A stretch of 64,000 nt of DNA, taken from positions 1 to 64,000 of IMG/VR virus record IMGVR_UViG_3300035564_000075, one strand, 5' to 3'. The DNA comes from a virus. A program made the position numbers and the translations under genes. The notes under the pieces were generated by a model, which had not been told where the DNA came from, ran no database searches, and was given only the letters and a program-made list of their open reading frames with translations. Every line of letters starts with the position of its first letter. Position 1 is the first letter of the stretch. Below are positions 3,654 through 63,437 of the stretch, piece by piece.

Positions 3654-3711
3654 CTAGCTCATGTACCATGTGTACAAGGAGTAACGGAATTCCTACTAGG
3701 AATTCCAGCTT

Positions 3712-3794
3712 GCAGATGTGACGGAACCGGCATACGTGTCTGCCTCAAAACCAGATGTGCGATGCACACGGGAGTTCGAATCTCCCCATCTGCA
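3712..3794 (+). tRNA. tRNA-Leu(CAA)
   Basis: loop ctCAAaa; variable arm; acceptor gcagatg/catctgc. Confidence 0.9.
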
Positions 3795-3798
3795 CTAT

Positions 3799-3879
3799 GC
3801 GTGGGTTGGACAGGTGGTGAGTCCCCCTGACTGTAGATCAGGAGCCTCGGCTGTGGGAGTTCGATTCTCTCCTCACGCA
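3799..3879 (+). tRNA. tRNA-Tyr(GTA)
   Basis: cctga-ctGTAga-tcagg. Confidence 0.9.
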
Positions 3880-3969
3880 CAATCGGCAATGGCAAAAGTG
3901 AGTTCCTAATTCTGGCGGTAAGGATAACGCTCTACGGTCCTGGGAAAACCTATCACTCCATTGCCGTAT

Positions 3970-4042
3970 GCGCCTGTAGCTCAACGGACTGAGCAAGTGT
4001 TTCCTAAACACTAGGTTATGGGTTCAAATCCCATCAGACGCT
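3970..4042 (+). tRNA. tRNA-Arg(CCT)
   Basis: agtgt-ttCCTaa-acact. Confidence 0.9.
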
Positions 4043-4081
4043 CTTGGCATGCTGGACCTGAAATCCAGCCTCTGCCAACTT

Positions 4082-4159
4082 CCTCCGGTATGTCTCAATG
4101 GTTAGAGCAACTGTCTTATGAGCAGCGAGTTGGAGGTTCGACTCCTCCACGGAGGACCA
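4082..4159 (+). tRNA. tRNA-Ile(TAT)
   Basis: ctgt-ctTATga-gcag; T arm ggagg-ttcgact-cctcc; encoded CCA. Confidence 0.75.
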
Positions 4160-4812
4160 TGCTAAAGTATTTGATTTGTTCCGTACAGAGAAGCGGAAGC
4201 AACTTGCTGTGTGATTACTTGAAGAATACGAATGTCCTAGGAAATCCATTAGAGATGTTCAATCCACAAGGACCTAATGAGGGCTTCTACTTCACAGATG
4301 ATCATATAAGGCACATGATAGAAACAGATTCGCATGATGGTATTTTTGGTGCGAAAGTGATGTTCGATCAGGTAGTGTCTTATATAGGAACAAGAAGTTT
4401 CAATAGAATGTTTCATCATTCGAGGTTCGTCTTCATTCGAAGACAGGATAAGGTAGAACAAGCAATATCATTGTCCAGGGCAATGCAAACAGGAAGTTGG
4501 ATGGGCACACAAGAACCAACAATAGTTCCTGAATACAAATTCTGGCACATTCTCACCTGTCAGTATCTGATATATATGCAGGAAAGAGGATGGACACGTT
4601 TCTTTGAAGAGTATAAAGTTCCACATATAACAGTATGGTATGAGGACCTGCAACAAAACCCAGATGAGCAGTTGAATATAGTTACCTCATATATTCTATC
4701 AACAAAGACGAGTCTTAGCGCAGTAACAGATATGAAAATACAGCGCGATTCGCTAACAGAGATGTGGAAAGAACAGTTCAGCAAGGATCTAACAGAGAAG
4801 ATAAAAATATGA
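4159..4812 (+). CDS. Stf0-family (PAPS-dependent) sulfotransferase
   Basis: YLICSVQRSGSNLL P-loop, RRQDKVEQAISL motif, YEDL; probable start at MLKY (4159). Confidence 0.8.
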   Translation: MLKYLICSVQRSGSNLLCDYLKNTNVLGNPLEMFNPQGPNEGFYFTDDHIRHMIETDSHDGIFGAKVMFDQVVSYIGTRSFNRMFHHSRFVFIRRQDKVEQAISLSRAMQTGSWMGTQEPTIVPEYKFWHILTCQYLIYMQERGWTRFFEEYKVPHITVWYEDLQQNPDEQLNIVTSYILSTKTSLSAVTDMKIQRDSLTEMWKEQFSKDLTEKIKI

Positions 4813-5000
4813 TCATAAAACGTGTAAAAGCAATTTTAGCATATGTCTTTGGAAGGATTTTCATCTTCTTCTGGGTAATGTGCGCCAAGATGGATTTTTC
4901 GTCTGCTTTCAATACCTTGACTAGCATGGCAGACAATCTTAGAAGGATGGAACAACAACAAGACATACAAGAAAATTATAATAAGGTCATGCGGGAATAG
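4809..5000 (+). CDS. small membrane-associated hypothetical protein
   Basis: ATGA overlap with sulfotransferase stop; hydrophobic N-terminal segment; stop inside tRNA-Gly. Confidence 0.55.
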   Translation: MIIKRVKAILAYVFGRIFIFFWVMCAKMDFSSAFNTLTSMADNLRRMEQQQDIQENYNKVMRE

Positions 5001-5063
5001 CTCAATCGGTGGAGCGTCTTTCTGCCAAGAAGAAGGTTGCGAGTCCGAGTCTCGCTTTCCGCA
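4991..5063 (+). tRNA. tRNA-Gly(GCC)
   Basis: tcttt-ctGCCaa-gaaga; C55. Confidence 0.9.
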
Positions 5064-5067
5064 CTAT

Positions 5068-5140
5068 GCTGGACTGGCGCAATGGTCAGCGCAATCGTCT
5101 GATAAGCGATAGGTTCTCCGTCCAAGTCGGAGGTTCAGCA
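5068..5140 (+). tRNA. tRNA-Ile(GAT)
   Basis: atcgt-ctGATaa-gcgat; C55. Confidence 0.9.
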
Positions 5141-5250
5141 CTATGCTGGTAGTGGCTAATAAATGTGAGTGAGTCTTCAATGCAAGAAGATTCCGCCACG
5201 AGGGTGATCCTGCAGCGCACAGGCCCAACATTCCGCCCTCACCAGCACAT

Positions 5251-5322
5251 GCAACCGTAGTCCAGCGGTTAAGACGGTGGCCCCTCAAGCCTCCGACCCG
5301 AGTTCGATCCTCGGCGGTTGCA
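5251..5322 (+). tRNA. tRNA-Glu(CTC)
   Basis: ggc-ccCTCaa-gcc; acceptor gcaaccg/cggttgc; C33. Confidence 0.88.
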
Positions 5323-5337
5323 CCTAGGAGAGCAAAC

Positions 5338-5487
5338 ATGTTCAGATGTAGATCCTGTTCTGCTGATTGTTTTGGTATGTCGCACGATCATGGCAAGTTT
5401 GGTTGTATCTATTGCCATTGTAGAAAGACAGAAGAACAGGTCGAACTGGAAGGAGAGCCTCCAAGTTCGTATGCCCTTGTCGTCTAG
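5338..5487 (+). CDS. 49-aa Cys/His-rich putative zinc-binding protein (not in ORF track)
   Basis: AGGAG RBS; MFRCRSCSADCFGMSHDHGKFGCIYCHCRKTEEQVELEGEPPSSYALVV*. Confidence 0.6.
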   Translation: MFRCRSCSADCFGMSHDHGKFGCIYCHCRKTEEQVELEGEPPSSYALVV

Positions 5488-5544
5488 CGGCCAGGACGTA
5501 AGCCTTTCAAGCTTGCAAGCAGAGTTCGAGTCTCTGCAAGGGCA
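5473..5544 (+). tRNA. tRNA-Glu(TTC)
   Basis: taagc-ctTTCaa-gcttg. Confidence 0.9.
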
Positions 5545-5548
5545 CTAT

Positions 5549-5620: not shown

Positions 5621-5624
5621 CTAT

Positions 5625-5697: not shown

Positions 5698-5701
5698 CCT
5701 T

Positions 5702-5711: not shown

Positions 5712-5719
5712 GTACGTAT

Positions 5720-5875: not shown

Positions 5876-5879
5876 CTAT

Positions 5880-6174: not shown

Positions 6175-6357
6175 ATGAACTGTCCAAATTGTGGTAGAGT
6201 GATTTATGGTTTTTGGAAATATCCGGTAAGCTTGGCATGCAGTTGGAAATGCTTTCGTAGGCTTATTGCAGAAGGCAAGATCCCCAGAATAACCCCAGAA
6301 CGAAGTTATGAAGAACTTGGCATTTCAGCACCCAATAAGAAGGAAGAAAATTCCTAA
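6175..6357 (+). CDS. small zinc-finger protein
   Basis: GAGG RBS; MNCPNCG...ACSWKC. Confidence 0.65.
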   Translation: MNCPNCGRVIYGFWKYPVSLACSWKCFRRLIAEGKIPRITPERSYEELGISAPNKKEENS

Positions 6358-6368
6358 TAGGAAACTAT

Positions 6369-11309: not shown

Positions 11310-12996
11310 GATCTATGTGATGACGCCTGCCGAAATAGAGATATTGAAAGCAGGTGCATCCGATCCAACCATCATACTTGATTACTTCTCTCGTCGGCCA
11401 GGGCAAGACCATGGCTGGCGCTTTGACTACAACTTTACCGAAGAAGGTAAGTGGCAGAAGGAGATGTGTCAAGCATCCCAGACCTTCATCGTCTGTATTG
11501 CCGGTATTGCTACTGGCAAAACGGTCGGTGTTGGTATGGCCGCTGTTACCCATGCCATTCTCACTCCAGATTTCAAGTTCCTGAATGTGGCACGTGAAGC
11601 ATGGCAGTCACAACTGATGTACAACGCCATCCTGGAACATGCCGCAGGCACATTGCTTGAGAAACTGATCGTTGCCTCTCCTAGAAGGCCCTATCCCATG
11701 ATTGTCATTGAGTATATTGTCAATGGCATTCATATCAGATCTACTTTGGAGTTCATGTCCATAGGAGAGAAAGAAGATGCTGCAAATATATTTTCATGGC
11801 GTGGTGACTGGATCAATATTGATGAAGCTGGCCGACTTGACGACCTTGGTACGATTGTTGCGAACCTTTCAACACGTGGAACTGGTGCTACACCAGGGGG
11901 AAGGTCATATCTGGGTAGGATCTCGCTTACCACGAACCCATGGGACAATCCAGACCTATGGATTCTCTTCGACATGGCAGCGGCTGATCCGGAAAATTCG
12001 CTTGCGCTTAACATTGATACGTCTTCTAATAAGAATACTACTCAGAAACAGATCGACCAAATCATAAAGATCAACCGCATGGTGCTTGGCTCTGGAGATG
12101 TCAACAGATTCCTAACAGGAAAGCGTCCAGAGGGCAAAGGTACTTACTTCCCGAAGAATGTAGTGGATTCTTGTACATCCAGAATACTATCTACTCCAAT
12201 TGCCAATGGCATGAATGAAGGGACCCCTGAATATGAACTTCAGATCATGGGACAGTTGGGTGCATACTACTTCAAGACCCCAAGACAGAATGATAGGTTG
12301 TATTTCCTATTAGGAGATCCTGGTACTGGTGCTCCTCCAGCGCGTAATGCATTTGTAGTACAAGTCTGGGATGTAACTGATTCTGGTGAAGGCAAACCTG
12401 CATTGCTGGTGGCACAGCACTGGGGCAATGGTGGTGGACAGATAGAACCATTTGTAGAGCAGGTGATTGATTGGATAAAGTATTACAAGCCCATCTTCGC
12501 TGGTGTAGATTCTACTGGTCCACAGAAGAACACTGCTGAAATTGTTTCTCTGGATAGGATCTATGGCAAGGGTTATTCGGTAAGTGCGCTAACCCCCATG
12601 GACTTCTCCGGAGGCAAGCGTATTTCTTATTTGGGTTCTTTGCGTATAATACTAGAAGCAGGGCTAATGCTATGGCCTAGTATATGCACAGGAATCGGGA
12701 GTCAATTAAAAAACTATGATCCAGTCGTGGATAGGAATCCAAACTCAAAACTTCCGCAGGATCTTGTCGCAACTATGGCAATGGCTGCGCGTGCGATTCA
12801 TGGTCACTACGGCATCCTTGGTAAGGAAGGAAGCGATAATGACGCAGGACAAGGCACTGAGATTGTCAACCCTCGCAGATTTGATCGAAGCGAAGGTACA
12901 ACTTGGTCCGGTCGTTCCCAGAGAGACAATGCGGGACGCTCGGAGTATGACCCGAGAGCGGCGTCTGAGGAGATAGAAAGACGCATCAGATCCTAA
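11296..12996 (+). CDS. terL: terminase large subunit
   Basis: Walker A AGIATGKT, Walker B INIDEAG, TTNP coupling motif, RNase H-like GDPG..D; precedes portal. Confidence 0.88.
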   Translation: MAGSKIYVMTPAEIEILKAGASDPTIILDYFSRRPGQDHGWRFDYNFTEEGKWQKEMCQASQTFIVCIAGIATGKTVGVGMAAVTHAILTPDFKFLNVAREAWQSQLMYNAILEHAAGTLLEKLIVASPRRPYPMIVIEYIVNGIHIRSTLEFMSIGEKEDAANIFSWRGDWINIDEAGRLDDLGTIVANLSTRGTGATPGGRSYLGRISLTTNPWDNPDLWILFDMAAADPENSLALNIDTSSNKNTTQKQIDQIIKINRMVLGSGDVNRFLTGKRPEGKGTYFPKNVVDSCTSRILSTPIANGMNEGTPEYELQIMGQLGAYYFKTPRQNDRLYFLLGDPGTGAPPARNAFVVQVWDVTDSGEGKPALLVAQHWGNGGGQIEPFVEQVIDWIKYYKPIFAGVDSTGPQKNTAEIVSLDRIYGKGYSVSALTPMDFSGGKRISYLGSLRIILEAGLMLWPSICTGIGSQLKNYDPVVDRNPNSKLPQDLVATMAMAARAIHGHYGILGKEGSDNDAGQGTEIVNPRRFDRSEGTTWSGRSQRDNAGRSEYDPRAASEEIERRIRS

Positions 12997-13055
12997 TAGG
13001 AATCCGTATTTCGCCTGAAAAGTGTAGTATAATAGTGTAGTTCCAAAAATATCAT

Positions 13056-18552: not shown

Positions 18553-19647
18553 ATGGCCGTTACTGCTCAAGCAGGTATCATTGGTTTTGGTCCACAGGCT
18601 GCAAAAGGTTCACCTGCCCTTTCCATCTATCGTCACCGCGCTACTATGGTTGACATTGATGTTGCAGACGATGTGCGCGAAGGCCCACCAGAAGTTGGTG
18701 GACTGGCTGTGCCTACATTCCCTTATAAGGGTGGTCCCGTTGTGGCGGGAGGCTTTACCATCCAACCCCGCCTGGAAGATACTCTAGGATGGTTGCTATA
18801 CGGTATCATGGGTGCTACTAGCACTACCCCTGATGCAGAAAGTGGCGCTTATCTAAACTCATTCAAACTTGCAACCGATTCTGGTTATGTACCGTGGATG
18901 ACAATCCGCAAGTACGTTCCTCAGAATAACGGCGATCCCGAGACTGATATGGGACAGCAATTCAACGACTGCAAGCTAGTTGGCATGACTATGACTCTGC
19001 CGAATGATGGCCCTATCTCTTCTCGTGTCGATGCAATTGGTCGTACCTTTGATCTAGTTCCTTATCCGTTTAGCCTAACATCTGGTCCTAGTGGATCTCC
19101 TGGTGCTGTAGATGGCCCATGGGAATGGGCTAATACAATGGAACCATGGCACTCTATTCCAGTTGGTGTTCAGACTGGTGGTTTCATTAAGATCGGCGGT
19201 GACACTCTTCCAGTAGTTGCCGCACAGGTTGGTTTCCAGAACGTGCCTCTTGACCTACGTCAGGAGCGTGTGTATGGCGACCCATTCCTTGAGGATGTTA
19301 CTGTCGTTCAGCGTCGTTTGACCTTCGACCTCACTGTAAAGTATACCAACCCAGAACTGTACAAGTTGGTTCTGACTGGTACCAAGACAGGCACTGAATG
19401 GAGTGGACAACCACACACTGGCGCTCTGGATATTATGGCTATCTCAGCTAGCAAGATGACTGGCCTACTCAACCCATGGAGTCTGGAGATTACGAGCGAT
19501 GAAGTTATGATGACGCAGGTGGGTGGTATCACACTTGCTGGTAATCAGGCTATCTTGCTTCGTTTCTCTGGCGTTGCTCTTGAAGCAACCAACTATGCTA
19601 CGTTTATCTTGAAGAATAAGGTAAATGGGTATACTTGGCCTGCATAA
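18553..19647 (+). CDS. major tail tube protein
   Basis: beta-rich 364 aa; AGGAGG RBS; followed by hairpin and chaperone genes. Confidence 0.75.
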   Translation: MAVTAQAGIIGFGPQAAKGSPALSIYRHRATMVDIDVADDVREGPPEVGGLAVPTFPYKGGPVVAGGFTIQPRLEDTLGWLLYGIMGATSTTPDAESGAYLNSFKLATDSGYVPWMTIRKYVPQNNGDPETDMGQQFNDCKLVGMTMTLPNDGPISSRVDAIGRTFDLVPYPFSLTSGPSGSPGAVDGPWEWANTMEPWHSIPVGVQTGGFIKIGGDTLPVVAAQVGFQNVPLDLRQERVYGDPFLEDVTVVQRRLTFDLTVKYTNPELYKLVLTGTKTGTEWSGQPHTGALDIMAISASKMTGLLNPWSLEITSDEVMMTQVGGITLAGNQAILLRFSGVALEATNYATFILKNKVNGYTWPA

Positions 19648-19679: not shown

Positions 19680-19704
19680 ACAATTCCTAATAGGAGAACA
19701 TAAC

Positions 19705-20420: not shown

Positions 20421-23400
20421 GATTACTGATCTTGCAGGGCTGCTATCTGGCCCAAGTTATGGCCTACGTGTTTCGAAGAGTGAGCAAGAAGATGGTACAA
20501 CCCGTATCACTGTTTGGCAACCTAATAGGCCAGCAAAAAAGCTAACGTTAGATGTTCGCTCTTCCGAAGGGGGTGCATTCGGAGGAGTTTTTGAGATACT
20601 CAATAAGAGTAAGCGCACCGCCTATGTAGAAGCCCCATTACTTCAGGCAGAAGTAAGTGAAGGAGAAGAGACTAAGTTTGCCGGTTCTAGCTCTATGCAG
20701 ATGCTTGCACAGAGAATTTGGACATCCTTCGAGCGCGCCTCAGGACAAGTTGGTGCCACTCCACATTCTGTATTCTGGAGTTCCGTAGTAAGGGGAAACG
20801 AGGAAGTTCAGCCTGCTACTGCACTTGGTTGGCATGCCAATGAGTTGGCACAGAACATCACACGTGGTCAGATACGCTTCAATGTCAATGCAATGGGCAA
20901 ACCTCTATATCCTAGTGATGTAGAGCAAGTCCAGAGAGACCTGATGTCTCAAATCAGGTATGGCAAGAATCAGATTATGGGTCCTGGCAACCAGCATGAT
21001 CAGGGCGTTGGTGCAACCTTTGGTGAACTGGGACGTGGTGGATATGTGCAGAAGGGCGGGTTCCTAATTCCTATCACACAGATAACCAGAACTACTGCAG
21101 AGGGAACTGAATGGTTCCTACCAGGAACTGCAGAAAGTGCCGCAAAGTCTCTTCGTAGAATTGGTACATTGCCTCCAGAAGCACTTCCTTATACTAAGGG
21201 AGTGGGTCCAAATAACGTCTATCAGCAAATGCAAGCAACCCCTGCAACCGGACAGGGAGCAGGCTATGCGCTATTGAATATGATCCATCCTGGTGAAACT
21301 CAGGCACGTACTGCGCCTGTAGGCAACCTTTGGGTATCTGGTGTTAGTGGTATCCCTGGTGGTGGACTAGAGCCTTCTAATGCATGGAGACCATCTGCAT
21401 GGGGAAACACCACGGTTGAGGATCTCGATCTTCCTATTAGGAATATTGGAGAGGCCACTGCTGAAAACTTCCCGTTCAAGTTCCGCAATGTAGTAGGAAA
21501 GAACTATGAACCTGGGGAAGGTTCTCCTATCGTTGGTACATACAATGTTGGCGGAAGTGAAAGGAACCTAACTCTACGTCCAGTAGAGAGTGCTCCACTA
21601 TCTCCTTTGTCACAAGTTGTGCTTGTTCCATCATGGAAGAATCCAGTAACTGGTGAATTCCTTGCAACCAAGAAGAGGGGTGCGGTAGCAGTATCTGATG
21701 CAGAGGTACTGGCTGTATCTCAAAGATCTGGTTTGCCAGCACAGAGAGTAGAGGGTTATACCTCTCTGGCGTTGTCTGTTACCAGTCTATACAGAACTGC
21801 ACAGAAAACTGGTGGTACTATCAAGGCACTTGGCGTTCCTACTGGCATGGAACAGTATGTCCATGTAGGTGGACAGAAGGTACCGATCGATTTGGTTACT
21901 GGTGAACTGAAGTCATCTCTTGCCATCACGCAGGACTTTATGGCTTCTCGTTCTCGTTCTCAGGTACTGATGATGCTTGAGGATTACACCAAGAGAACCA
22001 GTGTTTCCGGTGGTCAAGAATTGGTAGAGTACTACAAGAAAGAGTTTATGTCTGGTAAGAGACCTGCTACTATGGAGGAACTTGCCTCTCAACTTAGCAT
22101 TTATGGCGAAGGACAGACTGAAGAGATCAGCAGACTGCAGAGATGGAAGTCATCTCTGACTGACATGAATACTGTCTTCAACATGAGCGAACTAAGCAAG
22201 GAAGAGTTGAGGATTCATGGTACAACCAATGCATCTAATCTTTCTACCTACATAGACCAAAGAATTTCTACTGTTCGTGACTCTGCATTCTCTGGTAATG
22301 GTATGCAACTTGGTAGTGAGATCTTCAAGAATACAGTTCTTGCAGAGAGTGATGCAGAGAGAGCTATGAAGCGCTATGGCGGCTTCTTGACACCAGAGGG
22401 TAACGAGATAGTCCATGGTGCCATGCATCCAGAGTCTATCAAGTGGGCAATCCAGGCTGCAATGGCAACTGGAATGACACAATCACAGGCAACAAAAGAT
22501 GTCAAGAGAAGGTTCACGTTTCAAGATCCTTCTGGCAATCCTATAACACTTCAGCAAGCTATCAAGCTTGGCGAGAGTGGTAAACTTCCTATTGCCTTTG
22601 AGCATCCAGAAAGAAGAAGTGTAGTTCTGATGGGACAGCCTCTTCCAAGAATGATGGAATGGGCTTCAAGGCAGACAAGAATTGGTTATGAGACTGGTAC
22701 ATATCTGTCTTCTATGTTTCCAAAATTCATGTCAGGTATTGGTGCGAACACACGTGAATCTCACAAAATGAGAGGCATGGAAGGACCCGAGCGTGAAGTA
22801 GATGCTTATGTAAAGTGGTCACTCACTCTTGCAAAGCAGAATGAGCAGTATCCTGATATTACTAAGCTAGGAAAGGGAAGGGAATATACAGGAAAGGAAG
22901 AGACTGCTGCGGCTATGACCGTTGCAGAAGACTTGCTTGTAAAATCTGCTTCAGATCTTGCCGAAACTAGAAACAATCCCGATGCAACTCCAGAGATGAT
23001 CAATCAAATGGAGGATGCATATCAATATCGCAAGTCCAACTTCATGGAAATAAGACAGAAGCTGGATATGCCGCCTGAAATGCCGCTTATGCCAGAGAAG
23101 TATCAGGAAGTAAGCGAATCCAATATGAGTAATATTGGTTCCTGGCTATCTTCCCCAGAGGGACAGCAGGCAAGTGACGAAACCAAGCTAGACTTCATTC
23201 GCTCTACTATTGGAGAGGGAGAGGGACCCCTATTCTATGGTCATATCAAGGATGGCAAACTCGTTTCTGGCCCTGGACATCTAATTCCACGCCCTGAACT
23301 TATCAAGGAACTGCAGTACAACGACAAGATCACTGGAGAGTCAATTGGTAACATCTCTGCTCTCTATACTGGAATCTTTTCTGGTAAGTCTGGACCCGAG

Positions 23401-38402: not shown

Positions 38403-39485
38403 ATGCTAATCAACGATCCCGTACTTGGATTTGACGTATCATTGTGGACCCCCGTTATCAAGACGAACGAACTTGAGGACGGTGGTGTGAAAACCGTAGT
38501 AGTTGGCATCTATTCTGCCATTGATTCTACCGGAAAGAAGGTTCTAGATCCTACCAGTAGAGCACAACTTACAGCAGTTGCTAAGAGTTCCATGGTTCTT
38601 CAGGCATATTATTGGGATGACATCACCCTTACTGGTGAATCTCAGATGGCATGGCTACAATCTACCCTAAAGGCAGAAGGATTCCCTATTCGCTGGATGT
38701 GGTTGGATGATGAGCAGTGGTGGACAAACTGGGGTTCCTGGATGCTTGCAAAGCAGAACCAGATCCCATGGAGTTCTGTACCCTATGGCTCTTCTTTCAA
38801 TATCTCCGGTCACTTTGGCAATACTGCAAGTATACTGTACAAGCTGACCAACCAGATGGGGGTGTATACCAATAATGGCTTTGTCTCATCTTGGGCCTCA
38901 GGCATGAATTCATGGCTATCTCTCTATCCATCATGGATTCCATACTATGCACACCAGCCTAGTCAGGCAACGATCCTTACTTGGCAACAGGTAAAGGATC
39001 AATGGATGCCTACCTATGACCCTGGAAGGGCACCAGGACAGATCGCCAGCTTTGTCTATGGACACCAGTTCACTGGTGACGTTATGCTTCTCCCAGGTGC
39101 CTATGGCAAGTATGGCGCATACTCTCCAGCAGATGTGAATGTATTCTCTGCGGCATTCCTGAACAAGATCCGCAACAATCCAGCACTCTTTACTGGTGGT
39201 GTTACCCCTCCTCCAGTTGTAGTACCTCCAGTTGTAGTGACTCCAACCATTCCTTCGGTCAAGTACCATACCGTTTACCCAGTGAATGTGCGTGATTCCT
39301 TCTTGCAAAGCAGCACATTACTTGGTATAATGGAGACAAATACTCATATTCTGGTTGACAAGGATGGTGGCACTGCACCCAATGTGTATCATCACTTCCT
39401 TGGTAAGAACCAGGACCCACAGGGAAGTGTCAAGTTCCCGAATGGTGGTTATGTGTATGCACAGTACTGCCATATAGATTCCTAA
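38403..39485 (+). CDS. endolysin, GH25-like muramidase with C-terminal SH3-like domain
   Basis: GFDVS, WLDDE (DxE), GVYT, HQFT, DVN; PV-rich linker. Confidence 0.8.
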   Translation: MLINDPVLGFDVSLWTPVIKTNELEDGGVKTVVVGIYSAIDSTGKKVLDPTSRAQLTAVAKSSMVLQAYYWDDITLTGESQMAWLQSTLKAEGFPIRWMWLDDEQWWTNWGSWMLAKQNQIPWSSVPYGSSFNISGHFGNTASILYKLTNQMGVYTNNGFVSSWASGMNSWLSLYPSWIPYYAHQPSQATILTWQQVKDQWMPTYDPGRAPGQIASFVYGHQFTGDVMLLPGAYGKYGAYSPADVNVFSAAFLNKIRNNPALFTGGVTPPPVVVPPVVVTPTIPSVKYHTVYPVNVRDSFLQSSTLLGIMETNTHILVDKDGGTAPNVYHHFLGKNQDPQGSVKFPNGGYVYAQYCHIDS

Positions 39486-39498
39486 TAGGAGAATACAA

Positions 39499-39950: not shown

Positions 39951-41060
39951 GTGCGTCTTCATATTATAGGTATGCCACATTCGATAACTACAGAGGCATT
40001 CCAGACCTGCGCTTTCACGCAAAAGGTCTGGAAGTTCTGTAAGATGATGCCCAAGTATGGTTGGGAAATCGTGCACTATGGGGTAGAGGGTGCAGATGTT
40101 CCTACTAGGAAAATAGACTTGGCGACTAGAGCAGAATGGGATGCGGCCTATGGAGATAGAGATCCCTCAGAATTCTATAATAAATCTCCGAACGATTTTG
40201 TGGTAGAATTCAATAGGCGCGCAGTAGAAAGTGTAATGCAGAACTCTGCAGAAGATGATGCAATCTTGTTCCCTTATGGACAACAGGCCATAGCGGAAAG
40301 ACTGACCAACAGAAGGTTGCAGGTAGAGTCTGGAATAGGCTATGAGGCTGTATTTGCACGCTACAAGATATTTGAGAGTCGTGCATGGGCAAACAGGATC
40401 TATGGAGAACTTGGAGTAGAGGATGTACCTCACTTCGATGGTATAATACCTAACTACTTCGATCCAGAGAAGTTGCCGCTGGTCACAAAGAAGGATGACT
40501 ACTTCCTATATATGGGGCGTTTGATACCGAGAAAGGGAGTGGCGATAGCAGCAGAAGTGTGCAGGATTCTCGGTAAAAAACTGGTTGTAGCTGGACAGGG
40601 CTCTTTGAGAACTGCACATATAACAGATGCTAACGTGGAGTTCCTAGGACCAGTAAATGATCCCATACAGAAAGCAGAACTTATAGGTCGTGCGGCAGCA
40701 GTATTCTGCCCAACGCAATACTTCGAACCTTTTGGTGGTGTTGCGGTTGAAGCTATGATGACTGGTACTCCGGTAATATCATCCGATCATGGTGCCTTTC
40801 CCGAGACAATCGTACAGGGAATTACCGGATGGAGATGCCAAGTATATGATGATTACATTCAGGCCGCACAAAGATTAGATGTCTTCGACCCAATGAGAAT
40901 TCATCGCTATGCAGTAAACAATTTCTCCATGGATCGTATATCAAAACTATATGACCTTTACTTCAGGCGATTGCAACTTGCAAACCAACCTGATGGATGG
41001 CTCAAACCAAATGAAGCTAATACTGAAGAAGCATATTGGCATGAGACCATACCAGCTTAG
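39951..41060 (+). CDS. GT-B glycosyltransferase (GT4)
   Basis: GRLIPRKG, EPFGGVAVEAMMTGTPVI. Confidence 0.9.
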   Translation: MRLHIIGMPHSITTEAFQTCAFTQKVWKFCKMMPKYGWEIVHYGVEGADVPTRKIDLATRAEWDAAYGDRDPSEFYNKSPNDFVVEFNRRAVESVMQNSAEDDAILFPYGQQAIAERLTNRRLQVESGIGYEAVFARYKIFESRAWANRIYGELGVEDVPHFDGIIPNYFDPEKLPLVTKKDDYFLYMGRLIPRKGVAIAAEVCRILGKKLVVAGQGSLRTAHITDANVEFLGPVNDPIQKAELIGRAAAVFCPTQYFEPFGGVAVEAMMTGTPVISSDHGAFPETIVQGITGWRCQVYDDYIQAAQRLDVFDPMRIHRYAVNNFSMDRISKLYDLYFRRLQLANQPDGWLKPNEANTEEAYWHETIPA

Positions 41061-41982: not shown

Positions 41983-42024
41983 AAGAGTCTCCTAATAGGA
42001 ATGTTGGAACATCGCGATACTATA

Positions 42025-51067: not shown

Positions 51068-51543
51068 AGGGTTCTCCTTTCTCTAAACTCTTCAAGAGTA
51101 TAACGCAACTTCAACCCCCTGTCAATGTTTCTAAGCATAGACTTTATCGCTCTATCAGATGGACGTAGGTCACGCAGTATACCACCTTCATATGGTTCGG
51201 GATCTTCCTGCGTGAGCATGACATCGTAGCTCATCTGGTCTTTAGGAATGTGCCAACGATAGTGTCTCTTTCCTACTAGGAAAGTCATAGAGATTAGGTA
51301 GTTGGTGGAGTAGATTCCACTCCAGCCACATCTATCACAACCTTCGCCATCGCAACTCCAGCACTCATTCGTCTGCACGTGCTCTACCACATACTTGGAG
51401 TAGCCATGCTGGTAGAGATAGCGCATTAGTTGCTCTTTCAGATCATAGACTTCTTCTTTATCAGGCAGGAAACCAGTACGAACTATGTTGTTCAGCACGA
51501 ACATGTCTTGTGCCATTGAAGCAAGGGTGAGTGGTATTCTCAT
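50881..51543 (-). CDS. hypothetical protein with CxxCxGxG..CxxC zinc motif
   Basis: CWSCDGEGCDRCG; 3' end overlaps the next gene. Confidence 0.55.
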   Translation of the reverse strand: MRIPLTLASMAQDMFVLNNIVRTGFLPDKEEVYDLKEQLMRYLYQHGYSKYVVEHVQTNECWSCDGEGCDRCGWSGIYSTNYLISMTFLVGKRHYRWHIPKDQMSYDVMLTQEDPEPYEGGILRDLRPSDRAIKSMLRNIDRGLKLRYTLEEFRERRTLWELALTIQMKSLLLGVSAHLGLSRNPTWRNKVLWPAVRSSLQDSAKLVQSLKNGIGWNRKQ

Positions 51544-54156: not shown

Positions 54157-54271
54157 TTTTCCTTCTTTCCTAATAGGAGTTTTCGATACTCTTCATCTTC
54201 TTGCATCCAGTGAGCCCAACGCCATTGAGTCTGTTCGGGAGACTCTTCATAACCATCATAGATGGGTTCCA

Positions 54272-54712: not shown

Positions 54713-55180
54713 CTACCTGTCAATGGACGCTGGAAGGTTAGTTCTTTCTTTTGCTTCATCAATGTCCTCCTGCGTAATAAGGATTTCGTCTGCCAGAAAA
54801 CACGATTGTCCTTTACCATCTGGATGTTTTGGACGAACATGACCACGCACTTTACAATGGACAACATATCTATTCTCGGTAATCCTGAACATGCGACTGA
54901 AGAATGCTTCCGCATCTTCTCTGGTATATAGAAAGTGCCATCCTGATTGATACTCTTGTCCATGACTGCCATCAGTAACCATCTTTATGTCAGCCTTGTT
55001 CCATGTTCCTAATAGGAAACTGCGACTACCATCAGTACCATGAAACAAGGATCTCACGTAGCCATACTTGATTTCTACAATCCTATAGCCATCACGTTCT
55101 GCATTCCATGGCATCATGGGCACAGTGAAATGAGTCTTGTGAATCTTATTCTCATCCCAGGGTTGCGGTTTATCATCCAC
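54713..55180 (-). CDS. hypothetical protein, distant relative of the GYKVV family
   Basis: GYRIV..GWHF..A..C..ADEI. Confidence 0.5.
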   Translation of the reverse strand: MDDKPQPWDENKIHKTHFTVPMMPWNAERDGYRIVEIKYGYVRSLFHGTDGSRSFLLGTWNKADIKMVTDGSHGQEYQSGWHFLYTREDAEAFFSRMFRITENRYVVHCKVRGHVRPKHPDGKGQSCFLADEILITQEDIDEAKERTNLPASIDR

Positions 55181-59685: not shown

Positions 59686-59865
59686 TTATAAGTCCAGTTC
59701 ATCCAGAACATGCAAATCATGTTCCATGGGAACTGATACCTCATCACCGTCTGGAGTATATCCCACAATCTCACCGTTGTCAATATGATCAACAGTGAAT
59801 GGAACATTTCCATCAGACTCAATAACTATGTCACCTTCATTGGGCAATGCGCCATCCAAGTTCAT
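59686..59865 (-). CDS. 59-aa acidic protein (not in ORF track)
   Basis: TAATG overlap with ParB-like stop; MNLDGALPNEGD...LDELDL*. Confidence 0.6.
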   Translation of the reverse strand: MNLDGALPNEGDIVIESDGNVPFTVDHIDNGEIVGYTPDGDEVSVPMEHDLHVLDELDL

Positions 59866-60647
59866 TATTCCTCCTGTGCAAGAAGTTTGTCAATATGAGC
59901 CTTGCCTCTCATAACAGCTTGTTCTGGATCGCTCGTTATTAGAATCTCACGAATTTCCATTAAATCATCTCGTGTGAAGATCCTGCGTGGATTGCCAGGA
60001 CCCGAGAATGACATAGTTACAGCAGTTGCTTCTGCCTGTGTCAAGCGATGATGTGCCATAACCATGTCCATGGTCAGTTTCTTCTTGGGGCTCTGCTCCA
60101 TCTCGATCTTGCATTCTGCCTGAACTGGCGTAGATAGCTTGCCAACCTCTTTGGCAACATTTACAACCATATTGCCCTGTTGGATAGCAACAAGTGCCCA
60201 GTCCGGAACTCTGGCAAAGTCCATATCCAGCTTTTTCACGTAAGTAACGGAAGTGCCAATAAGTTTCGAAATTACTGTGTAATTCTTTCCCGCTAATAGC
60301 AGCTTTTTCACAGCTTGATAGTCAGAGACAGGATTTGCACTGGATTGAGCATTTTCAACCAGTGTGATCCAACCACCATCCTCTTCATCACCCTTGAGAA
60401 TGCGAACATCAATATTTCCACTGGAACGACCATCTTCTTTCAATTGTCGCACTGCTAGCAATCTCCGTCTGCCAGCTTCCAGATGAAATATCCCAAGATC
60501 ATCCATCCTGACTATAATTGGGTTCAGTTGCCGAATTGCCATAGTGTCAACAAAGCCCTTATCAGGTTTTTGCCGATTTATATCACTATTTTTGGGCAAG
60601 CGGTTATCATCACAATCCCATACTTGGTCGTCAACCCATGTAAGCAT
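59865..60647 (-). CDS. ParB-like protein (ParB-N domain + HTH)
   Basis: QLNPIIVR..AGRRRLLA..LVEN; ISKLIGTSVTYV. Confidence 0.8.
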   Translation of the reverse strand: MLTWVDDQVWDCDDNRLPKNSDINRQKPDKGFVDTMAIRQLNPIIVRMDDLGIFHLEAGRRRLLAVRQLKEDGRSSGNIDVRILKGDEEDGGWITLVENAQSSANPVSDYQAVKKLLLAGKNYTVISKLIGTSVTYVKKLDMDFARVPDWALVAIQQGNMVVNVAKEVGKLSTPVQAECKIEMEQSPKKKLTMDMVMAHHRLTQAEATAVTMSFSGPGNPRRIFTRDDLMEIREILITSDPEQAVMRGKAHIDKLLAQEE

Positions 60648-60892
60648 ATTAGCCTCCTCTTACGCTATTTTTGAACTCGGATAGCATTTCACCAACCATA
60701 TTCAGCACACCAGATAATGCTTCTGCTTCTTCTGCCGAAAACTCATATGAAACTTTAGATTTGCTTCCATCTGCAAAAGCAAGTTCCAGAGTCATATCTG
60801 GAGAGGCAAGCAAGTCAAGTTGTTTTTTCAGCAAGCCAACATCAACGCCATCTATACATAACCGTTGCAGCTTATTTGCCACTTTTGTCTCC

Positions 60893-61687
60893 CTATAGGC
60901 TAACAATCTTTACAACTTGCAAACGTTCATCCAGTGATTTGAGTGCATCCAGTGCAGCTTTCTCAGTATGCATCTCTTTATCTTCATAAACACGCCAATA
61001 AGCCATTCTGCCAATTGGCAGTTTGAAGAATGCAGCAGGATAGAATTCGGTACCATCCAGAACCTTTGCACCAGTGTAGGTAAAGGATGGCATAGTTCTC
61101 TTTACTGCATCTGTATCCTTGCCAAGAGGTTCACCATCAACCAGTGCATCATAGAGAATGCGATGGCAAGTGATACCAAAGTCAACATGATTGTCATTAT
61201 GGTCTGGAATGTCTCTAGGACACTTCCTGGCACCTACATTACGCCAATATGGAGTAGGATCTACAATGCCAGCACGAGCATGTACTGCATAGTAGTTACT
61301 CTCTGGTGTAAGCAGATTGAATTGCAATGTGCGTTGCACAAGCTGGTGGAATCCCAGTTTCATCACTTCTTCCAGCCAGTCCATAGGATTAGGATAGTTC
61401 TCTGCACCAATCCAATCCCACATATCATAAACTTGCTTTCCTTCCTTGTTGAAAACAGGAAATATGTCCGTCTTAATAGTTTCAAGATTCAGTGCATGTG
61501 TATATCTTGGCCGAAGATCCATACCCTGTCGTGATATATCAAAATTGTCAGTAAGTGGAATGGTGGGACAAATTGCAAATGCCCATACTGGCATTCCCGC
61601 AACTTCACCCTTTTCGTCTACATCAACTACGATATAGGCTTTTCCAGGTTGTGGCATTCCACAACCACGTGGCAGGATTCTATTCAC
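60893..61687 (-). CDS. hypothetical protein
   Basis: long ORF; GTG start after AAAGGA. Confidence 0.6.
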   Translation of the reverse strand: MNRILPRGCGMPQPGKAYIVVDVDEKGEVAGMPVWAFAICPTIPLTDNFDISRQGMDLRPRYTHALNLETIKTDIFPVFNKEGKQVYDMWDWIGAENYPNPMDWLEEVMKLGFHQLVQRTLQFNLLTPESNYYAVHARAGIVDPTPYWRNVGARKCPRDIPDHNDNHVDFGITCHRILYDALVDGEPLGKDTDAVKRTMPSFTYTGAKVLDGTEFYPAAFFKLPIGRMAYWRVYEDKEMHTEKAALDALKSLDERLQVVKIVSL

Positions 61688-62057
61688 GTTGCTTCCTTTC
61701 TCTTTTGAAGGGAATCTTCTCAATCAATTTCACTTTCTTGGCAAGATGAGTTCCTTTTGGAAGTTCTGCTAGAAGCTTGGAGTATGAACGTGGCGTCCAT
61801 ATCTTCACTCCATCACTGGGTACATACTCACACATGTATATTGCAACATGGTAAGTTCTGCCCACATAATCCCTCTTGAGAAATACCCTAGCAGCCTCTT
61901 TAGACGAGAACACACAAAGAGGACCAAAATTATACATTGGCACCGTCCATCTATTGATATGGTATTTATGCAGGCCAATCATTGTGTATGAGGTTTTACT
62001 TCCATTCACTTCACTGACAACCTTATATCCATATTTAGTCTTTTCTTTTGTGCTCAT
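61680..62057 (-). CDS. GYKVV-family paralog 1
   Basis: GYKVV..GPLCVF..CEYVPS..LPKGT..AKKV. Confidence 0.75.
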   Translation of the reverse strand: MSTKEKTKYGYKVVSEVNGSKTSYTMIGLHKYHINRWTVPMYNFGPLCVFSSKEAARVFLKRDYVGRTYHVAIYMCEYVPSDGVKIWTPRSYSKLLAELPKGTHLAKKVKLIEKIPFKRERKQRE

Positions 62058-62441
62058 TTACCACTTCCTTACTAGCTCAATGAGTTTTACTTTCTTGGCA
62101 AGTTTCGTTGTATACGGCAAAAGAAGCATTGGCATAGTAGTTGGGTATGGATAGTTTGCCTTTGATGGCGTCCATACAGCTAACTCCGGAGATGGCACAT
62201 ACTCACACAGGTATAGTTCTCCTTCGCCAAACTTGAAGCTATCTGCTTGGTTTATCATAAACAGATAGGCTTCTGAAGAATCACTAAAAACGCATAGAGG
62301 TCCACATTTTCGTCTGGGATATACCCATTCATTTACCTTGTATTCAACAATGCTTCTGGGATACCTACCATAGATAATGATAGACATTCTCTTGTCACCC
62401 ACAACTCTTACTACCTTGTAACCCTGCAAAGTCTTAGCCAC
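62058..62441 (-). CDS. GYKVV-family paralog 2
   Basis: same motif set. Confidence 0.75.
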   Translation of the reverse strand: MAKTLQGYKVVRVVGDKRMSIIIYGRYPRSIVEYKVNEWVYPRRKCGPLCVFSDSSEAYLFMINQADSFKFGEGELYLCEYVPSPELAVWTPSKANYPYPTTMPMLLLPYTTKLAKKVKLIELVRKW

Positions 62442-62811
62442 GAACGCTCAACCTTTCTGGTGTCCCATATATCTTGACACATTCTGCTGTTTTGGTGCCA
62501 ATGGGTAACATTCCCTTTGAAAACGTAGTATCACCATCCCATAAACTGGAATCGCAAGATGGTACATACTCACATTCGAAAACATACATATTTGTTCTCT
62601 CGGGATTATATCCAACTTGTTCATACTTCCAGAATTCATACAGTTCATAAAGACTTTCGAATACACACAATGGTCCAAAAGTTGATCCATGAGTGACAAA
62701 CTCGTCCGGACGGTACACAACTTCTGCGCCTTTGCCTATATTCTCCAGCATAGAATAGTATTGTCCATTCCAATAACGTACTATCTTATAACCCTTTTGT
62801 GTCTGGGACAT
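62434..62811 (-). CDS. GYKVV-family paralog 3
   Basis: same motif set. Confidence 0.75.
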   Translation of the reverse strand: MSQTQKGYKIVRYWNGQYYSMLENIGKGAEVVYRPDEFVTHGSTFGPLCVFESLYELYEFWKYEQVGYNPERTNMYVFECEYVPSCDSSLWDGDTTFSKGMLPIGTKTAECVKIYGTPERLSVRG

Positions 62812-63020
62812 TCTCTATCTTTCCTTCCTCTGCAAGATATTGAATCTGAAACTTGATTTCATCAATCAAAGCAACATCACCAAGTGCATCCTTTACAGCT
62901 TCTGCGATAGTATTGAGATCTTTTTTGGACATGCGCTTATATCCGTAATCAACAACATCGGCAAAGTCTACTGTGAACGTAACCGTCATCTTCTTAGAAC
63001 TTTGTGCTTGTTTGCTCATA

Positions 63021-63437
63021 CTACCTCATCATAGTTATTCTAGCTTCCATTGTGTCCATTCTTTTGTAAAGTTGTGTGATAATCACCACTTTAGCAAGAT
63101 AGGTGCCATAGGGTAGAATATTCTTTGGCGTTCTATCATATCCAATTGAAATTCCATCATCAGCAACATAAATAGCTCTTGCATAAGATGGAATAAATCT
63201 ACACGTATAGATTTCTCCAATCTTATCACCATGACTTGTTGACTTTAATTCTCCTAGTAGGAAGTCAAATGCTCTCTTATAGTTGCCAAACACACATATA
63301 GGGCCGCAATTCTTCTGTGGAAGAGTGGGTTCCCACAACTTATACTCAAGCATTCCCTGAGGTCTGTCTTCTATAAAAGACACCCTCTTATCTCCTTTGA
63401 CAAGAACAACCTTGTAGCCAAACTTGTAATCGTTCAT
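63021..63437 (-). CDS. GYKVV-family paralog 4
   Basis: GYKVV..GPICVF..CRFIPS..LPYGT..AKVV. Confidence 0.75.
   Translation of the reverse strand: MNDYKFGYKVVLVKGDKRVSFIEDRPQGMLEYKLWEPTLPQKNCGPICVFGNYKRAFDFLLGELKSTSHGDKIGEIYTCRFIPSYARAIYVADDGISIGYDRTPKNILPYGTYLAKVVIITQLYKRMDTMEARITMMR

Follow-up and report, generated by a model that had tools for sequence, protein, structure and literature searches.

The palindrome TCCTANTAGGA, an 11- to 13-letter word counting its flanks, which recurs at a mean distance of ~4 kb along the phage genome studied here, very probably provides double-stranded DNA docking sites for a dimeric phage protein. The comparative result is new: each related lineage has its own version of the palindrome. 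An orphan 260-aa protein of the ParB/Noc/KorB type (59865..60647, minus strand) is the leading candidate for the dimeric protein that reads the sites, an assignment that is plausible but falls short of probable. The complete proposal, in which docking sites drift together with a homodimeric phage protein and the ParB-like protein is that reader, is put forward equally tentatively. The window, i.e., the whole stretch of DNA that was analysed, comprises bases 1–64,000 of an IMG/VR virus record of 84,630 bp, which carries a 123-bp terminal repeat. The source is an uncultured ~85-kb tailed phage.

Enrichment and placement of the palindrome

Exact matching recovered 15 perfect copies of TCCTANTAGGA in the 64-kb window, the same 15 that had been reported in the first-pass annotation, whereas 100 dinucleotide-preserving shuffles yielded a mean of 0.05 copies and a maximum of 1, with none reaching 15. 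Allowing up to one mismatch adds 8 sites in the window (23 in total vs. 1.79 expected), and these near matches include TCCTAACAGGA at 12110 and TCCTAGCAGGA at 16872, the latter previously placed at ~16871. The full 84,630-bp record holds 22 perfect copies against 0.07–0.15 expected over the backgrounds used, and the enrichment persists under Markov models of order 1–4 (0.07–0.13). It likewise persists in a codon-preserving shuffle, in which codons were permuted synonymously within 124 ORFs: 12 intragenic copies were observed, compared with a mean of 0.21 and a maximum of 2 in 1000 shuffles, none of which reached 12. The proposed pyrimidine/purine flanks and the free centre also hold, with a 5′ pyrimidine at 21 of the 22 sites (14/15 in the window), a 3′ purine at 21 of 22 (15/15 in the window), and all four bases represented at the centre (A 10, T 6, C 3, G 3).

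Copies are located both between and within genes. The copy at 3691..3701 occupies the spacer between tRNA-Arg(acg) (3581–3654) and tRNA-Leu(caa) (3712–3795), where the dyad reaches 21 bp. The six copies previously assigned to gene junctions each lie at a stop codon or near a start codon. Copy 6352..6362 is 6 nt 5′ of the ATG at 6369 of a class I methyltransferase-like ORF, and its right half also serves as a Shine-Dalgarno (SD)-like AGGA; 12991..13001 includes the terminase stop codon; and 19685..19695 falls in the gap 3′ of the tail-tube gene (18553..19647, plus strand; precomputed Pfam PF18906 on its cluster), 5 nt 3′ of a GC-rich hairpin (19656–19679) and 9 nt 5′ of the ATG at 19705. Copy 39480..39490 overlaps the stop of ORF 38403–39485, 8 nt 5′ of the ATG at 39499, and 54168..54178 is 11 nt 5′ of the ATG at 54156 of minus-strand ORF 53113–54156. 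The remaining junction copy, 41990..42000, lies in the 5′ leader of minus-strand ORF 41602–41982, 7 nt 5′ of its ATG at 41982; a perfect sigma70-type promoter (42053–42024) has its −10 box ~24 nt upstream of this copy. Outside the window, site 79197 directly follows the −10 box of a strong sigma70-like promoter.

Within genes, 12305..12315 (large terminase gene), 30264..30274 (1145-aa tail ORF), and 34339..34349 (1366-aa tail ORF) are read in the frames F-L-L-G, F-L-I-G, and L-L-V-G, while 21432..21442 (2879-aa ORF) and 40100..40110 (glycosyltransferase ORF 39951–41060) are read as P-I-R and P-T-R. The 2879-aa ORF is positioned where a tape measure gene is expected. Copies 51271..51281, 55007..55017, and 63252..63262 fall within the minus-strand ORFs 50881–51543, 54713–55180, and 63021–63437, respectively. 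Among nine intragenic copies checked, six follow (F/L)-L-x-G and three P-x-R, in agreement with the two reading frames described earlier. The 22 sites split into 12 intragenic and 10 junction copies, figures that are approximate because ORFs were called by crude longest-ORF selection; with 7% of the sequence non-coding by these calls, 10 of 22 sites at junctions corresponds to a binomial p of 8e-7.

Palindromes of related lineages

Each of the 12 related viral records that were examined has an over-represented palindrome of its own, built on the same plan; examples are TCCAA-S-TTGGA, TTCCAATTGGAA, CTCCAC-NNN-GTGGAG, and TTCGCA-N-TGCGAA. The commonest palindrome of each record was taken as its lineage word and occurs in 3 to 22 copies, compared with 0.01–0.36 expected from half-site frequencies; because words were picked as the most frequent palindrome, the records with 3–4 copies (G013, G014) are weak. 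The tail-tube gene served as the marker for collecting relatives and for defining a gap with the same place but a different word, and in 6 of the 12 records the own word is present within the ≤130-nt gap 3′ of this gene. Words track the tail-tube tree, on which 11 word groups require 10 changes, the minimum, whereas shuffled words needed 16.8 changes on average, and not one of 200 shuffles got down to 10. The studied phage (G000) branches within a clade of TCCAA-word phages that has 98/97 support, and TCCTA-N-TAGGA accordingly looks derived through a symmetric T/A swap. No GenBank phage matches to the tube, capsid, and 2879-aa proteins were found; the only genome-collection match is a 9-kb contig binned as Magnetococcales.

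From lineage to lineage the words change symmetrically, which together with the copies in two frames supports the earlier view that selection acts on the DNA. The accompanying proposal of sites for a dimeric protein gains from the same symmetric change and from the C/G-only, strand-neutral centre of the TCCAA-S-TTGGA lineages: C or G occupies the centre at every site in G005 (13/13), G007 (9/9), and L008 (5/5), and on the coding strand of G005 and G007 combined G (13) and C (9) are about equal, with no strand preference. In G010, all 8 sites have a 3-nt centre that forms a palindrome of its own (R-S-Y), and the centre spacing varies by lineage between 0, 1, 2, and 3 bp. Most relatives have more than half of their sites within genes (8/9 in G007, ~10/15 in G008). 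Site 12305, the sole intragenic site comparable with a close relative (L005), is kept there with only the free centre base altered (T to C); all three of its constrained codons are retained, against a background in which 41% of the codons for identical residues differ, a result that is not significant (p ~0.2). Site 12991 is absent at the equivalent L005 position, where ~550 bp are inserted.

Simulation of the spacing coefficient (CV) revealed that sites in the TCC-word records are spaced more evenly than random, the simulated fractions at or below the observed CV in the seven records being 0.05, 0.002, 0.218, 0.001, 0.21, 0.105, and 0.244 (Fisher-combined p = 3e-5). The sites of G008 are clustered, not evenly spaced (CV 1.10).

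Candidate readers and competing explanations

In the ParB-like protein an N-terminal CTPase-fold domain, which bears the motifs AGRRR and ENAQ, precedes an HTH domain; the protein matches PHROG 1033 (E 2.9e-9) and aligns to Noc through the GxRR and ENxQ motifs. Best Foldseek matches to its AF2 model (pLDDT 79) are Noc, ParB, Spo0J, and KorB (E 1.6e-6 to 5e-5), with the Noc structures 7nfu and 7ng0 as the best PDB matches; the KorB chains 8qa9_B (rank 14) and 8qa8_A (rank 19) stand below Noc, ParB, and Spo0J in the list, and the alignment to 8qa9_B spans 222 columns. In the manner of KorB on RK2 and of Noc, the dimer would recognise the palindrome via its HTH domains and then close into a CTP-dependent clamp. 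Such a clamp could slide or spread from sites ~4 kb apart and so mark the whole phage chromosome, the specificity of the reader presumably drifting together with its sites, and sites abutting promoters or 5′ leaders (41990, 79197) may additionally confer local transcription control.

Homologues of the ParB-like protein are present in G006, G007, and G009. In G008, a complete record (terminal repeats, CheckV 100%) with 15 copies of its word, an unfiltered search with the family profile to E 50 detected no ParB homologue, there was no Pfam ParB_N match, and no homologue turned up among 10 neighbouring ORFs scanned. Either the reader is not ParB, or G008 employs a different one. Of the readers originally suggested, the ParB-like protein is real, with its ParB/Noc/KorB fold and GxRR and ENxQ motifs, and ranks as the best candidate, although it is missing from G008. 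The half-site TCCAA is common to G006 and G007, whose ParB recognition-helix segments match at 9/18 positions, including 7 of the final 9, against 40% identity overall, an agreement of helix and word that is confounded by relatedness and rests on four genomes. The differing centre spacing (0–3 bp) is awkward for a rigid dimer. No palindrome copy lies close to the ParB-like gene, the nearest being 55007 and 63252. A 276-aa protein encoded nearby (60893..61723, minus strand; predicted model pLDDT 30.8) is present in G006, G007, and G009 and absent from G008, and given this proximity and shared pattern it may be a module partner of the ParB-like protein.

Other roles suggested at the outset fared less well. 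Neither a ParA-type ATPase (ParA, AAA_31) nor an integrase above cut-off was found in any of the five genomes, and the absence of ParA makes a parS-like partition role unlikely. The winged-helix protein at 47352–47621 scores below the Pfam cut-off and appears in <2/5 relatives in iterated searches, which makes it a poor candidate for a family-wide trait. A stoperator-like reading fails on symmetry and orientation, and the premise of a virion RNA polymerase found no support, the 2879-aa ORF having no Pfam or PHROG match.

That the sites instead serve as operators of an ordinary dimeric HTH regulator, for example a timing switch or a global repressor, is unlikely but has a concrete candidate in HTH-160, a 160-aa HTH protein encoded outside the window (G000 66400–66882, opposite strand). 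Its family occurs in all four near-complete relatives (G006, G007, G008, G009) and thus covers the ParB-less G008; its N-terminal HTH (Pfam HTH_28 E 7.7e-4 and HTH_23 E 2.8e-3, both below cut-off) precedes a long helical part; and both the strong promoters adjoining 41990 and 79197 and the junction excess would suit an operator. However, intragenic sites predominate in most relatives, the even spacing is unexpected for gene-specific operators, and across seven other records 0 of 14 strong promoter-like sequences have a site ≤40 nt downstream. HTH-160 itself differs greatly between G006 and G007 in the recognition-helix region despite their same half-site, and its only PHROG match is ‘terminase small subunit’ (E 0.0012). 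Recognition or cleavage by a phage nuclease, producing programmed nicks, recombination hot spots, or resolution sites, is improbable, even with two candidates that occur in 4/4 near-complete relatives, G008 included, and keep certain columns: a family-wide HNH-like protein (46675–47124; CxxC, D-x-H-E, N, H) and a PD-(D/E)XK/VRR-NUC-like protein (56850–57419; D, D, E-x-K; Pfam VRR_NUC E 9.9e-4, below cut-off). Enzymes of the dimeric PD-(D/E)XK type recognise palindromes, and restriction enzymes related to them tolerate a centre of 0 or 1 base. Double-strand cuts every ~4 kb would nevertheless break up the phage’s own genome, the HNH and PD-(D/E)XK families ordinarily serve in packaging and junction resolution, and the even spacing and strong positive selection for sites would be left unexplained. 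Deletions between repeat copies, which would favour a nuclease, are reported for Cluster O phages (PMC4351075).

The element might also act as a short RNA or single-stranded DNA hairpin, for instance as an SD-sequestering stem or as a terminator tip that an RNA-binding protein recognises. Its right half, (T)AGGA(G/A), fits the SD context of many phage genes, 7 or 8 of the 22 copies lie 5–12 nt 5′ of a start codon, several lineages have CCTCC...GGAGG arms, copies 3691, 68364 (outside the window), and 17402 of G011 sit at the tip of longer dyads, and a centre of 0–3 nt is natural for a loop. This is still decidedly improbable: the stems would be just 4–5 bp, positions 5 and 7 (A...T) are always complementary though they would be loop bases, and the C/G-only centre without strand bias fits duplex DNA and not a loop. 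Moreover, about half of the copies are intragenic in two frames, the G008 and G012 words contain no SD-like sequence, and compensatory, non-identical stems have not been seen among the copies so far; the SD link may be passive because a half-site pre-exists at every TAGGAG-type ribosome site. A link of the sites with restriction-modification or a host factor, as a methylation target or as the site of a host protein, is very improbable. A change of host could underlie the change of word from one lineage to the next, and palindromes of odd length with an N or S centre look like type II target sites, but one would expect avoidance of restriction targets, not ~100-fold enrichment. No DNA methyltransferase was found in the phage, where the only methyltransferase match, 6369–7088, is a class I SAM enzyme of generic type with sugar and sulfate transferases around it.

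Known systems with dispersed sites

For docking sites read by a ParB-like protein, Noc offers the best sequence and fold match. It reads many dispersed palindromes on the Bacillus chromosome and tethers DNA to the membrane via an N-terminal amphipathic helix, thereby blocking division; the phage protein would resemble it as a partner-less ParB paralogue with many dispersed palindromes. The IncP plasmid RK2, for its part, carries 12 OB copies. These operators are bound by KorB, which has the ParB fold and a CTP switch motif (PMC11790492), as does the phage protein; the OB core given there is a 13-bp odd palindrome with a C/G centre like the sites here, and in both cases sites are dispersed over a ~60–85 kb genome, some at promoters and many far from them. 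RK2, in contrast, additionally encodes the ParA-type IncC and KorA, which locks the clamp, whereas the search for ParA was negative here and a KorA-like partner is not known, the phage has no sign of plasmid or lysogenic life, and its protein, known from sequence and model, is only ~19–20% identical to KorB.

Among published cases, the 17-bp dyad repeat TGTTCGG-NNN-CCGAACA of Cluster O mycobacteriophages (Cresawn et al. 2015, PMC4351075) comes closest; it is present in 34 copies in Corndog and is accompanied by the ParB-like gp90 without ParA or integrase. Both systems combine invariant inverted-repeat arms with a free centre, in tens of copies over a siphovirus genome, about one third to one half of them intragenic and the others in short gaps; the centre is unoriented relative to transcription and most copies lie away from promoters. 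A ParB-like protein is encoded in both, with no ParA or integrase found, and methyl- and glycosyl-transferase genes occur among the structural genes. The phages have no sequence relationship, however, and the word here is shorter (11–13 bp vs. 17 bp). Five Cluster O phages share one word by that account, whereas the 12 records here have ~11 words with centres of 0–3, and even spacing sets the present sites apart from the repeat as described there.

Cluster A stoperators and Cluster K start-associated sequences, as presented in the same text (PMC4351075), are similarly short repeats with many genome copies, some in short gaps or just 5′ of start codons. Stoperators, however, are asymmetric, oriented with transcription, and found in temperate phages with an immunity repressor, and start-associated sequences are tied to start codons, whereas the word here is a perfect palindrome with half of its copies inside genes.

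A palindrome dispersed through the phage genome

The palindrome TCCTANTAGGA occurs 15 times in the window against an expectation of 0.05 from dinucleotide-preserving shuffles, none of 100 of which reached 15, and all 15 perfect copies claimed by the first-pass annotation were found exactly in their places. Allowing one mismatch adds eight sites (23 in total versus 1.79 expected in the window), and the whole 84,630-bp IMG/VR record, which carries a 123-bp terminal repeat and of which the window covers bases 1-64000, holds 22 perfect copies. This word tops all 5-N-5 patterns of the genome by a wide margin, the next unrelated pattern reaching 6 copies. At 21 of the 22 sites the 5′ flanking base is a pyrimidine, and at 21 of 22 the 3′ flanking base is a purine; the centre base is A in 10 copies, T in 6, C in 3, and G in 3. 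The enrichment does not vanish under a codon or Markov background, as the annotation had allowed that it might: Markov models of order 1 to 4 predict 0.07–0.13 copies rather than 22, and 1000 synonymous-codon shuffles of 124 ORFs gave a mean of 0.21 and a maximum of 2 intragenic copies where 12 are observed. Taken together, the dinucleotide, one-mismatch, Markov, and codon-shuffle tests rule out chance, composition, and codon usage as the source of the copies. The two reading frames reported for the intragenic copies were likewise recovered, with (F/L)-L-x-G at six and P-x-R at three of the nine copies checked.

Ten of the 22 copies lie at gene junctions or gaps, compared with 7% of the genome being non-coding (binomial p = 8e-7 on crude ORF calls). 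Strong Shine-Dalgarno sequences, TAGGAG in many cases, and sigma70-type promoters are in use in this phage, and seven to eight copies sit 5–12 nt 5′ of a start codon, so that the right half of the word doubles as a ribosome-binding site. This association may be passive, since TAGGAG-type ribosome sites each already hold half a word and gaps tolerate change. Two of the ten strong promoter-like sequences of the genome adjoin copies: the copy at 41990 lies in the leader behind a perfect TTGACA-N17/16-TATAAT promoter (42053-42024, minus strand) that drives the last minus-strand gene (41602-41982), and the copy at 79197, outside the window, directly follows a −10 box. A second perfect promoter of this type (84403-84430, plus strand, also outside the window) aims into the tRNA array across the record end. 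Promoter adjacency does not generalise across the relatives, in which the majority of copies are intragenic and none of 14 strong promoter-like sequences in seven other records has a site within 40 nt downstream. The suggestion that the sites are signals for a virion RNA polymerase found no support as a promoter role, given that no polymerase was detected, that the 2879-aa ORF matches no family, and that the word is a perfect palindrome and often intragenic.

Words of the related phages

Alignment of the tail-tube protein retrieved 59 loci from IMG/VR, and 11 related records were examined in full (G005 to G015, of which G006 to G009 are near-complete), making 12 with the phage under study (G000). 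In all 12, the top palindrome has the same build, with half-site frequencies predicting 0.01–0.36 copies per record. G000 carries YTCCTA-N-TAGGAR (22 copies in 84.6 kb), and TCCAA-S-TTGGA (TCCAASTTGGA) is found in G005 (13 copies, 50.6 kb) and G007 (9 copies, 82.9 kb). G006 has TTCCAATTGGAA (13–14 copies, 88.7 kb), and G008, a complete record, has a word of a different class, (G)TTCGCA-N-TGCGAA(C), as duplex TTCGCANTGCGAA (15 copies, 83.5 kb). CTCCAC-NNN-GTGGAG is shared by G009 (6 copies, 82.2 kb), G010 (8 copies, 52.8 kb), and G015 (5 copies, 31.6 kb); CTCCAA-NN-TTGGAG occurs in G011 (10 copies, 37.0 kb), CTCGCATGCGAG in G012 (5 copies, 25.8 kb), TTCCGG-NN-CCGGAA in G013 (3 copies, 30.3 kb), and TAGTT-N-AACTA in G014 (4 copies, 39.7 kb). 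The cases with 3 and 4 copies are weak, as the word of each record was chosen as its most frequent one; by our arithmetic, some palindrome would reach at least three copies by chance in a 20–30-kb record with a probability of the order of 0.01.

The G000 word was absent from the five records first tested, save the closest relative, L005. Mapped onto a 24-row tree of the tube protein, the words (11 groups) require 10 changes, the minimum possible; in 200 shuffles the mean was 16.8, and this minimum was never reached. Apart from G000, the members of the supported clade (98/97) in which it nests carry TCCAA words, so the G000 word looks to have come about by a symmetric exchange at positions 4 and 8, and the G006 word by loss of the centre base. 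A search for close relatives suited to a synonymous-decay test yielded just L005, a 4.6-kb contig, and a terminase metagenome scan added none; conservation of the single intragenic site shared with L005 was not significant. Between the terminase and portal genes, L005 (1156-1702) has about 550 bases more than the window (12961-13111), and these fall where the window carries its copy at 12991.

The tail-tube gene is followed on its 3′ side by a GC-rich hairpin and then by the ribosome site of the next gene, and 6 of the 12 full records have their own word in this gap of at most 130 nt (G000 19685, G005 20520, G008 42554, G010 33601, G011 17402, and G015 8165). Further loci (L019, L021, L030, L037/38, L039/40, and L052) have other words in the same gap. 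With a site density of about one per 4–6 kb, this occupancy is far above chance, and it may partly reflect one of the few roomy gaps. Copies in records with TCC words are also spaced more evenly than random (Fisher-combined p = 3e-5). The share of simulations whose CV of gaps did not exceed the observed one was 0.05 for G000, 0.002 for G006, 0.001 for G005, 0.218 for G007, 0.21 for G010, 0.105 for G011, and 0.244 for G009. G008 is the exception, its sites being clustered (CV 1.10), with five copies within 8.5 kb (59118-67647) and one 26-kb stretch free of copies; this genome also encodes a GIY-YIG/NUMOD3 homing-type endonuclease. The initial observation is confirmed, and the comparison with relatives extends it to a family-wide, co-evolving trait.

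Putative docking sites and candidate readers

The sites very probably serve a dimeric phage protein, here called the reader, as places to dock on duplex DNA. The centre is C or G at all 13 sites of G005, all 9 of G007, and all 5 of L008, with coding-strand centre bases about equal in G005 and G007 by our count (13 G, 9 C). The three-base centre of G010 reads R-S-Y at 8/8 sites, positions 5 and 7 of the word are invariably complementary, and within one genome the copies are identical, with no compensatory variation. These centre rules, the 5/7 complementarity, and the identity of copies point to a symmetric dimer bound to duplex DNA rather than to a hairpin in RNA or single-stranded DNA. The hairpin reading gains some weight from a few copies that form the tip of a longer dyad (3691, 68364, and G011 17402) and from CCTCC...GGAGG arms in several lineages. 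The sites do not look like intrinsic terminators or RNA hairpins, for which a stable stem of variable sequence, compensatory changes among copies, and a T-run behind the stem would be expected: they share one common sequence with arms of 5–6 bp and a 1-nt centre, mostly without a T-run. A role as DNA methyltransferase target was not supported either, the sole methyltransferase being a generic class I enzyme. The proposed likeness to stoperators did not hold: those of Cluster A mycobacteriophages are described as asymmetric and transcription-oriented, in temperate phages with an immunity repressor and an integrase (PMC4351075), unlike the G000 site, a perfect palindrome in a phage that, like its four near-complete relatives, has no tyrosine integrase above cut-off (0/5).

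Among possible readers, the ParB-like protein (59865-60647) is the best candidate, at somewhat short of an even chance. It matches PHROG 1033 'ParB-like partition protein' (E 2.9e-9) and has an N-terminal ParB_N-type domain with a GxxR arginine patch and an ENxxR box; its stretches AGRRRLLAV and VENAQS line up with the GxRR and ENxQ motifs of Noc, and G59, R60, R62, E98, and N99 do not vary among 10 homologues. Pfam ParB_N is not reached by the protein itself, and PF02195 is found on two cluster homologues. In the AF2 model (pLDDT 79), a central HTH domain comes after this one, and the top-ranking PDB matches are the two-domain structures of Noc, ParB, Spo0J, and KorB (E 1.6e-6 to 5e-5 over 185–222 columns), with TM-scores of 0.28–0.50, as expected when domains differ in relative position. 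CTP binding, clamp closure, and sequence-specific loading at a palindromic site are putative properties of this protein. A ParABS partition system is unlikely, no ParA/Soj-type ATPase being found in five genomes with Pfam AAA_31, the sole ParA-type model used, which matched 14/14 control genomes.

The first-pass proposal of binding sites for a dimeric protein is supported as to the dimer; for ParB, one of several readers that it named, the difficulty lies with G008. The protein is encoded in four of the five near-complete genomes (G000, G006, G007, and G009), whereas the complete G008, with its 15 copies, yielded no homologue by the family profile with filters off, by Pfam ParB_N, or in a scan of 10 neighbouring ORFs; this is the main obstacle to ParB as reader. 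The ParB HTH segments of G006 and G007, which have a common half-site, match at 9/18 positions and other pairs at 1–7 of 17–18, an agreement that is suggestive but, among four genomes, confounded by kinship. An IMG/VR search found no ParB-bearing loci beyond G006 and G007, and the protein collection contains eight homologues, on contigs of 1.3–4.1 kb. A 276-aa neighbour of the gene has the same presence pattern as ParB, and its model, at pLDDT 30.8, gave no usable fold.

Alternative candidates are the non-structural proteins found in all four near-complete relatives, namely the DnaB-like and DnaC-like proteins, SSB, an HNH-like 149-aa protein, a VRR-NUC-like 189-aa protein, a 361-aa protein, and HTH-160, a 160-aa HTH protein. 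The HNH-like protein (46675-47124), with conserved CxxC, D-x-H-E, N, and H columns, and the PD-(D/E)XK/VRR-NUC-like protein (56850-57419) are kept across the family. The 361-aa protein next to ParB (58591-59676), kept in G006 to G009, has no Pfam or PHROG match, no PDB profile match below E 0.5, and a TM of 0.33 or less in the ESM Atlas with a low-confidence model. HTH-160 (G000 66400-66882, L013:2400-2882, outside the window) is encoded on the other strand from the adjacent genes, both in G000 and in each of the four near-complete relatives. Its gene looks like that of a leaderless regulator, with no Shine-Dalgarno sequence and an ATG about 10 nt past a TATAAT box, itself overlapping a divergent promoter; the protein has a weak PHROG match to terminase small subunit, and G006 and G007 diverge strongly in its recognition region. 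The winged-helix/HTH 89-aa protein (47352-47621) put forward in the first pass proved a weak candidate, falling below the Pfam cut-off and occurring in fewer than two of five relatives.

Parallels, possible role, and genome context

Dispersed dyad repeats of phage genomes were described in 2015 at the latest (Cluster O), with neither function nor reader assigned. In a literature search of main texts, such repeats were reported or explained in the Cluster O mycobacteriophage paper (PMC4351075) only. These phages have a 17-bp dyad repeat in 34 invariant copies, of which 14 lie between genes, 10 near 5′ ends, and 10 within genes; the copies show no orientation and are seldom found at promoters. 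The authors of that paper suggest that a dimeric protein binds the repeat and consider a part in transcription doubtful, and the phages encode a ParB-like gp90 and have no parAB system and no integrase (PMC4351075). With these repeats, the G000 sites share invariant inverted arms around a free centre, copy numbers in the tens, a spread over both genes and gaps, and the lack of transcriptional orientation. KorB of RK2 is a ParB-fold CTP clamp which, after loading at a 13-bp palindrome, reaches distant promoters by sliding (PMC11790492). The favoured mechanism is that the reader would load at the sites in a KorB/Noc-like manner and then spread, with some local transcription effects.

It is a long shot that orphan ParB-type clamps and even, lineage-private palindromes form a general phage 'chromosome-marking' system by which a lineage tags its own DNA. 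Such a system would coat or tag this DNA from loading sites every few kilobases, and might set it apart from the DNA of the host or of rival phages, protect it from defence systems or nucleases, or help to order replication and packaging. Rapid drift of the word would keep co-infecting relatives from cross-reacting, as in plasmid incompatibility, and lineages of the G008 type would have taken up a different reader. This uncultured family offers a natural experiment, with about 11 words and centre lengths from 0 to 3 on one conserved genome plan, a shared site position, the ParB fold in four of five near-complete genomes, and one ParB-less contrast genome. If the pairing of ParB and word is true, the CTP-dependent ParB/KorB/Noc clamp mechanism would extend to virulent phages and give a handle on the role of whole-genome marking during infection. 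If it fails, a specific reader and some 10–20 sites per genome would still shift specificity jointly over short evolutionary distances.

The source genome is that of a tailed phage, with 29 tRNA genes (86-6155), a large terminase (11296-12996), a portal (13111-14865), a tail-tube protein (18553-19647, PF18906 precomputed on its cluster), and, in tape-measure position after the tube and chaperone-like genes, a 2879-aa ORF (20374-29013) with no Pfam or PHROG match. A minus-strand arm encodes the DnaB-like and DnaC-like proteins, SSB, and the ParB-like protein. No relative was found among 50,697 GenBank phage records for four queries, and the sole match in a genome collection was L090, a 9-kb contig assigned by binning to an uncultured Magnetococcales MAG, which gives a very weak hint of the host range. 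Several long 'ORFs' at 86-6155 overlap tRNAs and are probably not genes. Auxiliary genes encode a Stf0-type sulfotransferase (4018-4812), a class I SAM methyltransferase (6369-7088), a weak glycosyltransferase match (7090-7749), a ferritin-like protein (9351-9833), a GT4 glycosyltransferase (39951-41060), and a radical SAM protein (44519-45322), a set that recalls the methyl- and glycosyltransferases among the Cluster O structural genes. The 5′ end of the Stf0 ORF overlaps two tRNAs and its Pfam match starts at residue 51, so the true start is probably further downstream.
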